From a virus: a DNA stretch of 64,000 bases. Of this stretch, positions 15,166 through 22,731 are shown one piece after another. The notes below the pieces were generated by a model. It searched no databases. It saw only the letters and a list, made by a program, of their open reading frames with translations, and was not told the origin of the DNA. A program made the position numbers and the translations under genes. The number at the start of each line of letters is the position of its first letter. Positions within the stretch are counted from its first letter, which is position 1. Where the stretch lies: IMG/VR virus record IMGVR_UViG_3300017613_001944, positions 18,212-82,211 of that record; one strand, 5' to 3'.

Positions 15166-15506
15166 ACCCCCTTCTACAGCATCTCGATGTACTGGAGAAC
15201 GCAGTTCTTGAGTGGTTAGAGAGGAGCTTCTATGAGACGGCTGACCACGAGCTCCAGAAAGCTCTACGTAAACAAGCGCTGCTCCCAGTAAATATGCAAG
15301 CCGAAATGCCGGAGGCTTACCGCATCTGGCGTACCTGTCAAAGACATAGTGAGTTGTTCTGGCCTGGTGGTATAGCCAATCAACCGGCAACCCTTATGTT
15401 AGAGATGGAGGCTTGCGAGAGAGTTTCAAACCAGTTCCAGGATCAAATCAAGCGAATGTACGGCATTATCGAGGATAAAGGCAGTGGCGCTTCGCCCATC
15501 GGATAA
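15114..15506 (+). CDS. Tail assembly chaperone -1 frameshift extension (gpT-like)
   Basis: Open in the -1 frame across the end of the previous gene; no convincing start of its own. Confidence 0.6.
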   Translation: MVVEPREIGGGSEDGGVNPLLQHLDVLENAVLEWLERSFYETADHELQKALRKQALLPVNMQAEMPEAYRIWRTCQRHSELFWPGGIANQPATLMLEMEACERVSNQFQDQIKRMYGIIEDKGSGASPIG

Positions 15507-21500: not shown

Positions 21501-22731
21501 TCAAGGTCCATTCTCCCAGGTGAATGTCGGTGGTGGAATGCAATATAACGCAGGTCCACTGCGACAGGGCATCGAGGACGCCCTGGCACAAGTCATGTCC
21601 CCAGAGGGAGCACAGAGTATAAGGGGAATGATGGGGGATATTCGCCCCTTAGTGGAACCAGAGACTGGCATGCAGATGGGTACCACTCGCATGTACGAGG
21701 GTTTCGCTGATGAATACCAGTTGCCTAGAGGCACAGATCAAGGAGCGTTTGATAAATATACTCAAATGCTGGTTACTGGTGGTAGACGTGACGTTGAGCG
21801 GGAAAAGGCCAGTCTCCAAGGTGACTTCCGAACATTCCAGCAAGATCAGCAAAGAACACAGCTAGAGTTACGCGGTGTATCTCAGTTCGGTGGGACCTTT
21901 GAGTCGCCCTACGGTGGTACATTAGATACCAAGGGCACCTTTGAGCTCACGCGGGAGATGAGAAATCTCTCCAGGACCTTCCAGGACTATAACCAAGAGT
22001 ACAATCAGGAGTCTCGACAACTGGGCTACAACCAGTTCCAAGAGAATTGGCAAGTACGAGCTCAGAGAATGCCTATCCAATTCCAGAGGCAGCGTGAAGA
22101 CCTGGCTTTCCAGGGCAACCAGGCGGCTATGGGCTTCGGTTGGCAGATGGAAGACATCCAGGAGAACCTGCGCTTTGCCACTGGCAGGGACAGGCGACGG
22201 CTATTACGCCAGCAAGAGCGTGCAGCCATCAGCTTTGGGATGGGACAGGGCCAGCGAGAAACACAGGCTGGACGAATAGACCAGAATGAGCGCTGGGCTG
22301 CTGAAGATCTTGAGCGACAGAAGCGACATTTTGAAGAGCGCTTCCGCTTACAGGATGATTACCAGGAAAGGTACCGTCAGTACACAGAAGAGCGTAGGGC
22401 AATAGAGGATCAGCTCCAAGAGATCCAGGAATTCAATGCCCAGTACAACTTAGAGGCTTCGACAGAGCAGCTAGACAAGTCCATCGCTCTCAACGAGCAG
22501 CTAAACGGGATACAAGAAGCATACACGGCAATGAACCAGGATCTCGAGAAGCAGGTTGGACTACAGCAACAGATCGTCAAGAACATCGAGTACTTGATAG
22601 CTCAATTTGCCGATGATGGTAGAGCAACCAACGCATTCAACGGTTTCATTTCACACATCGAGAACTCCTTCTCTCGGGAATCCGCCGAGATAGGGCTGAT
22701 GATCGACAGAATTTACGGCAACGATAGCTAG
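15484..22731 (+). CDS. Tape-measure protein fused to an N-terminal DEDDh exonuclease and a putative RNA-polymerase-like domain (2415 aa)
   Basis: LDVETTG/GHNVGFD/HEAMAD at aa ~50-200; FREP (aa 920) and GDFDKD (aa 964-969); Gly/Ala hydrophobic stretch and long Q/E/R coiled coil at the C-terminus; tape-measure synteny. Confidence 0.75.
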   Translation: MALRPSDNPGRALQDRAEQRAQQLMRERRGWSYSAALNFAMNELTYQQQHVVLDVETTGVKKGENELIQIGARKFGPGGKPGETYQTFVDPGGPIPQDITNLTGISTQMVMGAPSPQQAVSELSQFVGNLPVVGHNVGFDIGFLGMHGFEASTAADTLAASRAAMPQRRSHSLANIAAEQGWGIQQHEAMADVGMTSLLHSQLATMYQGGVPPPSGPPPPANISRSMGPTQRALPPAVHGAAMQLGIDAQQASEIVSSAGGGSIRQQIEAVQQFVYNKIGKPAPFGGSADPMQALSPTQWVQTTESGRAMTRTMTPLPSSFDPAKAQETWDPGQISYPGNKMQLDLERSLGASIWPVRGGAIQTGLEKPEQFPKRIKQAISNYQQIYLKDMEIEEAPWLTGPTSQAPEKGQTLRTAVVFGGFAPEGMSYIKQDLGSAGDFKYHKLPIPAGVVPEDIAPVGTAFTRSQGAQLFKGHTGIKFGDWEEQHVQDIRFEPGAINQPGALHVRMGRGIPLTRGIGYSMHSGKELLVGADVEKMTGRSDIQVVKAGPRDVLGLAFQAYSSMAPAEYERVTGKPRPATWQQAAADEESMAAFDRMASDNATMLQFPDQIISKANLEAFKEGNRIVPGTLEELGGERYRATLEYPAVVMDLFTQFTRGAYEHGQPFVGEGTLRRIRDANPQLYNQMMGEGKQQREWRQQNVQAYTASRGIPGLRQAPDQYTMARDLPWTNITQDATRRAMKISGVDRPEDIPYGAEQAALLQRIPLTHEGRATGALAFESRGKDYFFPHPRHVPAVPGTLGYEERSAYRHRYANLLQEQMRYQETGEEEPYRSALAGTMLASHRLVSSGEFLKRTLGVEPRSLYGGMGAASFANLPEELYMPTEAAARASGIKVGTPEYERFQRNFESGGYQFAASVFREPTTDTAGVLVKGLVKWIGTHPNETLRDARIPVLSAEMGQTLRGDFDKDAYTIAREWGIDLADAQTLKIQMRDFNLSNAQADKAGQRDKQFKEIGKFGTIRSMLDRIGQRTAIPLRDAIGQMSERSSVGRQMGYGYNIQQELEMSAVDPESKAAAELLGSNMYMQGQDFEKWSKELESLVVHRSANLATGGAYNIITGEPSRIPFGRSETGMMLSAIRMGSNLPGLSSREKAAMMTPAGNEGLRAAVEGALESGDIDSIAHLLEGALPGGAQEWGENTLLGRQVLGRAADLGQRKGAKGIRESLAEIGRSLRSVGAVRRSYPFKGRVEALRERMRLGGEPPSPVMQALLPGSEAPLDVSGMTPEEQDAMAIKAASASSGRGQGQTPEETRRFADRQMEWQAEIARGTADPANYPDLFPTKEEYARYAAQRAGAPPRPPDPARSAGSGGMGGGRLPPVTTATPDPSDPRQSGEGDPKKWVVNLNYGAVKIGDFNRAIETMTSRLGDWSEEMDPIVTGGKQFTKAQQQMTEKLISARRTLERADRGEGDFTSAQIQAAQQALATPGMGVLGQAEEQITNRWWGQRMDQGARGRVGRFYERFGSRGMGDASPTERMERGFRSVFSGWELMRLQRMWGLTGGRAFGAMPVAAEAQQGAMQAAMVGQPMGQFGMGDITAGLLETGARQQQFQVQMGTATNQAWGWMPRAMANTGLGTAAGIGLPALGMGAAAGWGAGVLGLGALSTPLGLGVAAGAGIYGGINYLRNRPEEDIDVAAAEQRKRDLTRQIATPQGLERFRPPGWMGGAFGPSVEGYSEEQAERGETILSGELTGLSVPQRMKAIQEAYQYAPQWMEPTAAQGLAQQWMRYDPEATNIREIYEDPRFEAMAARGTDVETYAKMAEGFGMRPSQAFDIYSIMAGVSEQEFGPVSETAQSWMGLGRAAGMKPEDILSRSKPRTQTPGDTRWGDVYNPERLAGPRLERLSGDPMVQQRAQAIEGMMIQRRTAGMEIPFEPPTTEAAVMDIYQGGQMQLGTAGLGLANQFMGMGATPLTAGAGAGAAERYGMMGVRGVSGFMGGDRNIMAMLGQANVQGPFSQVNVGGGMQYNAGPLRQGIEDALAQVMSPEGAQSIRGMMGDIRPLVEPETGMQMGTTRMYEGFADEYQLPRGTDQGAFDKYTQMLVTGGRRDVEREKASLQGDFRTFQQDQQRTQLELRGVSQFGGTFESPYGGTLDTKGTFELTREMRNLSRTFQDYNQEYNQESRQLGYNQFQENWQVRAQRMPIQFQRQREDLAFQGNQAAMGFGWQMEDIQENLRFATGRDRRRLLRQQERAAISFGMGQGQRETQAGRIDQNERWAAEDLERQKRHFEERFRLQDDYQERYRQYTEERRAIEDQLQEIQEFNAQYNLEASTEQLDKSIALNEQLNGIQEAYTAMNQDLEKQVGLQQQIVKNIEYLIAQFADDGRATNAFNGFISHIENSFSRESAEIGLMIDRIYGNDS

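Follow-up and report, generated by a model that had tools for sequence, protein, structure and literature searches.

The window analyzed here is a 64,000-nucleotide stretch of viral DNA (bases 18212-82211 of the 82,211-bp IMG/VR virus record IMGVR_UViG_3300017613_001944, for which CheckV gives a completeness of 84%), and the subject of this work is the gene at 15484..22731 within it, which encodes a single giant tail protein of three parts. An intact DEDDh exonuclease is followed by a middle module of about 1100 residues, which carries invariant motifs of the two-barrel RNA polymerases (RNAPs) and resembles parts of them in predicted fold, and then by a C-terminal part that is tape-measure-like. 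The most likely reading is that the gene product is a tape-measure-fused virion two-barrel RNAP, like gp96 of the Thermus phage P23-45, unrelated to gp96 in sequence and with an added exonuclease; we put the probability of this reading at about 0.7. An initial annotation of the same DNA, made from its letters alone, had proposed a virion RNAP fused to a tape measure and an exonuclease, and the outcomes for residue conservation and for predicted fold both favor that proposal, with moderate strength. The precedent on which it had drawn was correctly stated, in that gp96 is described as an active, tape-measure-fused virion RNAP that transcribes the pre-early genes (Chaban et al. 2024, PMC10770324).

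Conserved motifs of the middle module

The relatives of the middle module are few. An exhaustive phmmer search of the module against 1.84 billion cluster representatives recovered five clusters only (P0001, P0003, P0004, P0005 and P0006), of which P0004 is an 818-residue fragment; the only further members, P0002 and P0008, came from word-based protein searches. The family consists of giant tail proteins, the full-length members having 2415-3184 residues and C-terminal regions of the same kind, i.e. rich in Gly, Ala and Met and with a hydrophobic segment; continuous full-length homologues of 2434-3184 residues are encoded on other contigs. Scans for loci found one among viral contigs, encoding P0005, and none among genome contigs or metagenome contigs, and megablast and tblastn searches with the gene or the module gave no match in 50,697 phage records.

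In an alignment of six sequences, which are 30-40% identical to the window protein, 93 of the 1111 module columns are invariant, including those of K526, R920, P922, G964, D965, D967, K968 and D969. The densest invariant stretch of 10 residues in the module is GDFDKDAYTI, in which six positions are invariant, a density that gives it the look of a catalytic loop. The initial annotation had named conservation of the aspartates in homologues as a point on which the polymerase assignment would turn, and the invariance of the three Asp residues, R920, P922 and K526 in all six sequences, at this level of identity, supports the assignment with moderate strength. The motifs and linkers were all found exactly where that annotation had put them: DVETTG at residues 54-59, HNVGFD at 135-140, HEAMAD at 187-192, MHSGKE at 522-527 (with K526), SVFREP at 917-922 (R920 at nucleotide 18241) and LRGDFDKDAY at 962-971 (D965-D969 at nucleotides 18376-18390).

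A bare DxDxD means little alone, because 11 further cases occur in the 222 open reading frames (ORFs) of the 82-kb record. The composite motif, i.e. R-x-P followed after 25-55 residues by D-[hydrophobic]-D-x-D, occurs once in the record, only in 15484..22731, with 0.125 cases expected per shuffled proteome, and it is invariant in all six family members. When sequences are aligned with DxDxD as the anchor, R-x-P stands at a comparable distance upstream in the family (REP or RQP), in gp96 (RNP) and in Escherichia coli beta-prime (RAP...DFDGD).

The candidate active-site lysine of the beta-like half, K526, lies 15 residues beyond a predicted flap-like domain. The flap fragment of E. coli beta stops at residue 1057, shortly before the GNKG block, which we take to contain the catalytic Lys 1065. 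The flap-like domain is itself preceded by a conserved block, GQ..R.A...G...PEG.S, which resembles the block before the flap in E. coli beta; the likeness is one by eye only, because the Smith-Waterman score of residues 395-545 against E. coli beta is 32, below the shuffled mean of 36.8, and hence not significant.

Predicted fold of the middle module

Two AlphaFold2 models were built from shallow alignments (6 and 7 rows), model 1 covering residues 230-1340 and model 2 residues 424-1009. In both, the best-predicted block is a beta-sandwich whose matches are to the flap region in the second-largest subunits of RNAPs, including those of the Pol I, III, IV, plastid and African swine fever virus enzymes. 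Model 2 in addition has a double-psi beta-barrel that superposes, in the right register, on the barrel of beta-prime in RNAPs of bacteria, archaea and eukaryotes, such that DFDKD and the catalytic loop of beta-prime are at most one residue apart. The best chains found by Foldseek are RNAPs in all 50 rows listed, with beta-like subunits matching residues 439-511 and beta-prime-like subunits residues 863-966. The matched stretches of beta-prime stop with the second catalytic Asp (E. coli 462, Mycobacterium tuberculosis 537, Thermus 741, yeast 483), the corresponding end here being residue 966. For model 2, 43 of the 49 Foldseek rows listed come from RNAP entries, with no E-value at or below 1e-3. 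The beta-like half precedes the beta-prime-like half, which is the order in single-chain two-barrel RNAPs. Thus a double-psi barrel is predicted around DFDKD and a flap-like domain before K526, an outcome which, for the fold comparison that the initial annotation had proposed, is favorable with moderate strength, the models being of low confidence.

Among predicted viral structures in BFVD, the top-ranking row, at E 3.2e-3 and probability 0.97 over 381 columns, comes from the second half of a protein of the Microcystis phage MaMV-DC, which, judged by protein length, is probably ORF65L; rows named DNA-directed RNA polymerase are also among the BFVD matches. ORF65L (L010:225-5258, minus strand; 1677 residues) is annotated as 'hypothetical protein' and has a single DxDxD, in the context RTP, 36 residues, NEGDADGDQ. 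Its signature is of the RNAP type, and the protein has the look of a single-chain two-barrel RNA polymerase that has gone unannotated in a cultured cyanophage.

Evidence against a polymerase assignment and alternative explanations

Several observations weigh against the assignment of the module as a polymerase. No sequence method ties it to any RNAP at significance. Pfam finds no family in the module of any of the six members, even at E 10, and phmmer against the PDB returns matches to the exonuclease only. When the family alignment is compared by hhalign with gp96 residues 1-1200, there is one match, in which FREPTT...GDFDKD is paired with FRNPVM...VDFDGD (gp96 779-783); its E-value is 0.085, or 0.031 for the cropped region, at a probability of at most 1.6%, and it is thus not significant. 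A comparison with gp64 by hhalign gave nothing.

The models, with a mean predicted local distance difference test (pLDDT) score of 46.8 and a predicted template modeling (pTM) score of 0.30 for model 1, and of 54.5 and 0.32 for model 2, are both poor. The beta-prime barrel is seen in one of the two only, being absent from model 1, where the stretch has pLDDT below 50, and generic double-psi barrels, e.g. N-domains of the VCP type, match residues 861-966 as well as beta-prime does. The DFDxD motif may moreover have led AlphaFold to reproduce a local fold of the polymerase type. A beta-side barrel, a bridge helix and a trigger loop were not identified in either model, and P23-45 gp96, crAss gp66 and Neurospora QDE-1 are not among the fold-search rows listed. 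The more distant homologue P0008 (see below) has MDP where the others have R-x-P, and a DQDAD that comes into line only after a two-residue shift. Finally, a motif scan of the 82-kb record did not find a second, non-virion RNAP.

Further comparisons gave little. Alignments by hhalign with a three-member gp96 family alignment and with MaMV-DC ORF65L gave no significant match, and an Atlas feature search with the polymerase core gave scores of at most 0.84, which are uninformative. A wide fold search with model 1 returned mostly generic helical hairpins (MexA, catenin, BAR), with the flap match alone recurring; the long helices predicted after the DFDKD motif are of low confidence and likewise have only generic helical matches.

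It may be asked, therefore, whether the module is a polymerase at all. It could belong to the tape measure, with a structural role or one in breaching the envelope, and have a double-psi barrel by chance, e.g. a wall-cutting domain of the RlpA, MltA or expansin type, in which the acidic motif serves otherwise. Tape measures often carry wall-degrading domains, and the poor quality of both models and the lack of significant RNAP similarity by sequence are what this explanation would predict. Yet the flap-like domain matches, among the non-generic rows and in both models, only RNAP second-largest subunits; the R-x-P...DxDxD composite is not only invariant but in beta-prime register; the order of the beta-like and beta-prime-like halves fits single-chain RNAPs; the module lies on the N-terminal side of the tape measure, as in gp96; and searches of Pfam, PHROG and NCBIfam found no lysozyme, SLT or peptidase family in the protein. 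On balance a non-polymerase module is quite unlikely.

An inactive scaffold derived from a polymerase, serving e.g. as a plug or as a binder of the DNA end in the tail and leaving the exonuclease as the sole enzyme, would account for the Lys that replaces the canonical Gly in the metal-binding motif, for the rarity of the family, and for the finding that neither a partner RNAP nor a recognizable promoter set was found in the record. Such relics, however, usually lose their catalytic residues, while here no change is seen in the six sequences at any of the three Asp or at the Arg, Pro or Lys, which form the most conserved block; four of the six close members, and P0008, furthermore keep the module without an exonuclease. 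We consider loss of activity very unlikely. The weakest alternative, a two-barrel DNA polymerase that the virion would deliver, comparable to archaeal PolD and proofread by the DnaQ-type domain, is suggested by the PolC/epsilon proofreading type of the exonuclease, whose cultured-phage relatives, where the 40 rows listed carry annotation, are part of replication genes, by the Lys in place of the usual Gly, and by the lack of any family A, B or C DNA polymerase in the 82-kb record (positive controls worked; the record is 84% complete and such a gene may lie outside it), but is very improbable given that only two of the six close members have the exonuclease and P0008 has no Pfam match, that the structural matches listed are all RNAPs or RDR2, with PolD not among the rows, and that every characterized phage two-barrel enzyme makes RNA (PMC10770324).

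N-terminal exonuclease

That residues 46-208 form a DEDDh exonuclease with an intact active site is certain, judged by family matches and catalytic motifs. The domain matches Pfam RNase_T (PF00929) over residues 51-196 (E 5.8e-23; 82.7 bits, the cut-off being 24), PHROG 192, 'DNA polymerase exonuclease subunit' (E 5.3e-34), and a PolC-type NCBIfam model (E 4.8e-30), with PolC-type, DEDD and DinG-linked exonucleases ranking first; its best solved relatives in the PDB are the PolC exonuclease, DnaQ, Cas2-DEDDh, DinG-exo and epsilon. In the alignment with the PolC exonuclease 2p1j_A (E 1.3e-14), LDVETTG is paired with LDFETTG, GHNVGFD with AHNANFD and HEAMAD with HRALDD, and therefore all five catalytic residues are present. 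The initial annotation, which had recognized a DnaQ-like exonuclease with all catalytic motifs (DVE, HN..FD and HEAMAD), was thus right. The type of exonuclease points to a DNA-acting 3'-5' enzyme, the substrate not being readable from sequence.

All three motifs (ExoI, DxE; ExoII, HNxxFD; ExoIII, HxxxxD) and the match to the profile hidden Markov model are shared with the DnaQ/PolC DEDDh exonucleases (PF00929; PDB 2p1j, 8h18, Cas2-DEDDh 8fy9 and DinG-exo 8zef). By contrast with these, the domain forms the N terminus of a tail protein and is not part of a replicase, helicase or CRISPR integrase. Searches of cultured phages by tblastn found a related exonuclease domain in 78 records; among the 40 records listed, the annotated rows place it in replication-type genes and none in a tape measure, some rows being without annotation.

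Within the family the N-terminal head is variable. A DEDDh exonuclease is present at the start of two of the six close members, P0001 and P0006, the two domains being 31% identical over 121 residues (E 5e-8). In P0006 it matches RNase_T with E 1.5e-7, has the motifs DVETTG, HNKNFD and HDALAD, and is followed by polymerase-like module and tape measure in the same order as in the window protein. The homologue P0005/P0007 (3211 residues, encoded at L001:9539-19174, plus strand) has a Cys-rich N terminus with CxxC...CxxC instead of the exonuclease and, where its polymerase module gives way to the tape-measure part, an insert with HELGH that resembles zinc metallopeptidases (Peptidase_M78-like, E 0.0012); the N termini of P0002 and P0003 have no family assignment. 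On this comparison the exonuclease is a recurrent but optional accessory in the family, and its optional nature therefore argues against an obligatory proofreading partnership with the polymerase.

The initial annotation had also stated that such a triple fusion was not known from elsewhere. That needs to be qualified, since P0006, one other member of the family, has the same order; in published work, a literature search (listings and abstracts) for tape measures combined with DEDDh or DnaQ domains found no such fusion.

A more distant giant tail protein, P0008 (2898 residues, from a metagenome), has the C-terminal region in common with the family (blastp E 5.9e-21) and is weakly collinear with the module over 346 columns (hhalign E 0.002, probability 14%). 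It has no Pfam match at all, and no locus for it was found among the viral contigs. P0008 may mark a wider superfamily of such fusions.

Tape-measure-like part

Residues 1341-2415 match no curated tape-measure family in Pfam, PHROG or NCBIfam, the only lead being a weak one from the Atlas search, to a TMP_3 cluster (score 0.89). Comparison of residues 1377-2415 with gp96 shows compositional likeness only, with E 0.002 for a coiled-coil stretch and 0.053 for a Gly-rich stretch. The C terminus is rich in Gln, Glu and Arg, and the hydrophobic stretch has an equivalent in the C-terminal part of P0002, P0003, P0005, P0006 and P0008. Position, size, hydrophobic segment and composition are the grounds on which this part is described as tape-measure-like.

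As to position, the gene can be placed in the tape-measure slot, because the tail tube gene (PF18906) and small, chaperone-like ORFs lie upstream of it and because the homologue on the IMG/VR contig L001 is placed alike, after portal, major head, tail and minor-tail genes; this bears out what the initial annotation had claimed. ORF 15114..15506 overlaps ORF 14680..15165 in the -1 frame, which is the usual position of tail-assembly chaperones, like the G/GT pair. A GGGGGAA run lies inside this overlap, a slippery site not being established.

Comparison with known virion RNA polymerases

The gp96 group comprises proteins of the Thermus phages P23-45, P74-26, G20c and TSP4 and of the stolb phages, of which those of P23-45, TSP4 and one 'stolb' relative were used for comparison. 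In both cases the phage is long-tailed and of about 80-85 kb, one giant ORF occupies its tape-measure slot, the polymerase module is N-terminal to a tape-measure part with a membrane segment, and F-R-x-P is followed, about 40 residues on, by D-F-D-x-D. The HELGH insert of the family member P0005 also has a counterpart, in that a metallopeptidase domain is described for gp96 (PMC10770324).

By contrast there is no significant sequence similarity to gp96 (hhalign E 0.03-0.085; none by tblastn), and a tblastn search with gp96 itself finds Thermus phages only (10 records). The loop is DFDKD here and DFDGD in gp96, the window protein has 2415 residues and gp96 5002, and the N-terminal DEDDh exonuclease is without a counterpart in gp96 as described in PMC10770324. 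A gp64-like second polymerase, as in P23-45, was not found here. Activity, packaging and a clamp-less shape are features of gp96 that the window protein may share. By sequence the module is not a member of the gp96 family, the motif grammar alone being common to both; different two-barrel families are reported to share little sequence beyond the DxDxD region (PMC10770324).

The virion RNAP gp66 of phi14:2, a crAss-like phage, is a second point of reference. It, too, is a large virion protein encoded among tail genes and a single-chain two-barrel enzyme, and it has a DFDxD motif (10.1101/2020.03.07.982082). The initial annotation had called the DFDKD loop unusual, a description that is softened by the use of DFDxD for crAss-like virion RNAPs in the same source. 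Unlike the window protein, gp66 is not a tape measure, and the text of that report nowhere mentions an exonuclease. It transcribes single-stranded or denatured DNA efficiently and double-stranded DNA hardly at all (10.1101/2020.03.07.982082).

A literature search for tape-measure-fused polymerases found the P23-45 work only, the supplementary survey of PMC10770324 being a place where related families may be listed. It is therefore likely, with the same degree of confidence as given above for the gene product, that two-barrel polymerases fused to tape measures have in the window protein a second family, which has no sequence relationship to the first, comes from a mid-sized long-tailed phage, and differs in the Lys of its metal loop and in the exonuclease added to it. 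If so, transcription by a phage-borne enzyme coupled to genome ejection would be a recurring solution, found also in an uncultured phage of about 82 kb or more, and not an oddity of thermophiles. An intact proofreading-type exonuclease would be new for any two-barrel RNA polymerase, within the listings and abstracts covered by the literature search, and with its fusion one could test whether the processing of DNA ends, or the editing of RNA, is tied to the earliest transcription in infection. The compact polymerase core (about 1100 residues), with its Lys in the metal loop, would also be useful for comparing minimal two-barrel enzymes.

Proposed mechanism

If the protein is a virion RNAP, its C-terminal 1040 or so residues would act as the tape measure that fills the tail tube, with the hydrophobic segment entering the envelope after ejection and helping to form a channel. 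The middle 1100 or so residues would be a single-chain two-barrel (cell-type) polymerase, most likely a DNA-dependent RNA polymerase, in which the flap-like domain and K526 make up the beta-like half, and R920-x-P, the barrel and the D965-F-D-K-D969 metal loop the beta-prime-like half. The N-terminal domain would be an active 3'-5' exonuclease of the DnaQ/PolC type. On infection the protein may, by analogy with gp96 as described in PMC10770324, leave the tail ahead of or together with the DNA, such that the N-terminal enzymes would meet the first DNA to enter and the polymerase, again by analogy with gp96, would transcribe the pre-early genes without host polymerase.

What the exonuclease does in this setting is more doubtful. 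The best guess is that its target is the 3' end of the incoming DNA, which it would trim to give a single-stranded template; the preference of gp66, and likewise of QDE-1, for single-stranded templates makes a fused end-resecting exonuclease a sensible partner. Such 3'-end resection, argued by analogy, is nevertheless a tentative proposal and, taken by itself, rather unlikely, the alternatives being that it trims nascent RNA at the 3' end or attacks nucleic acids of the host. To a similar degree speculative is the idea that exonuclease and polymerase act together as a single machine where the genome first enters, which could take two forms. The 3' strand of the first-entering DNA might be resected, with transcription coupled to resection and ejection. 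Alternatively, the protein might be a two-barrel polymerase that proofreads by 3'-5' editing and possibly makes DNA; apart from archaeal PolD it would be the first of this kind.

Feature coordinates and neighboring genes

The record is divided into halves, with virion genes on the plus strand and replication and recombination genes on the minus strand, the latter encoding RecA, an AAA_24 ATPase, a DnaB-like helicase, a methyltransferase and a resolvase-like protein. Downstream of 15484..22731 are large tail-side ORFs without family assignment.

Table 1. Coordinates, in window numbering, of the parts of the giant tail protein and of the genes immediately upstream
Feature	Residues	Position	Strand	Basis or remarks
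Whole gene: exonuclease, then polymerase-like module, then tape-measure part	1-2415	15484..22731	+	Single uninterrupted ORF, 2415 aa, GTG start
DEDDh (DnaQ/PolC-type) 3'-5' exonuclease domain	46-208	15619..16107	+	Pfam, PHROG, NCBIfam, PolC alignment; catalytic D54, E56, D140, H187, D192
Pro/Gly linker 1	209-220	16108..16143	+	Sequence
Polymerase-like middle module	230-1340	16171..19503	+	No Pfam, PHROG or NCBIfam family
Conserved block GQ..R.A...G...PEG.S	410-428	16711..16767	+	Invariant E408, Q411, G420, P424, E425, G426, S428
Predicted beta-flap-like beta-sandwich	439-511	16798..17016	+	Best-predicted block, both models
Invariant Lys, candidate beta-side active-site lysine	K526	17059..17061	+	6/6; 15 residues past flap-like domain
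Predicted double-psi beta-barrel (beta-prime type), ending in metal-binding loop	861-969	18064..18390	+	Model 2
R-x-P motif at barrel start	R920-E-P922	18241..18249	+	R and P invariant 6/6; aligns with RNP (gp96) and RAP (E. coli beta-prime), DxDxD-anchored
Candidate Mg-binding catalytic loop	D965-F-D967-K968-D969	18376..18390	+	G964, D965, D967, K968, D969 invariant 6/6; in densest invariant window; superposes on beta-prime loop
Pro/Gly linker 2	1353-1376	19540..19611	+	Sequence
Tape-measure-like part; Gly/Ala/Met/Gln-rich, coiled-coil-like C terminus	1377-2415 + stop	19612..22731	+	Operon position, composition
Hydrophobic, membrane-segment-like stretch	1629-1677	20368..20514	+	Kyte-Doolittle windows >1.2
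Tail tube gene, upstream anchor of tape-measure slot		13169..14356	+	PF18906 Phage_tube_2, E 9.1e-8, 32.5 bits against cut-off 27
Three small ORFs (14369..14677, 14680..15165, 15114..15506)		14369..15506	+	ORF list; no family match

Two further genes of the window may be mentioned. On the minus strand, at 35763-36578, a 271-residue protein matches PHROG 1706, 'CRISPR/Cas system associated' (E 3.2e-11). On the plus strand, at 2240-6571, between a putative terminase region and the head genes, is the gene of a 1443-residue beta-rich protein of the LamG/concanavalin-like type (Laminin_G_3, E 1.6e-23). A DVDGD in this ORF (2240..6571) was considered as the mark of a second polymerase and rejected as a chance occurrence, the protein being LamG-type and beta-rich and the motif being without an upstream R-x-P.

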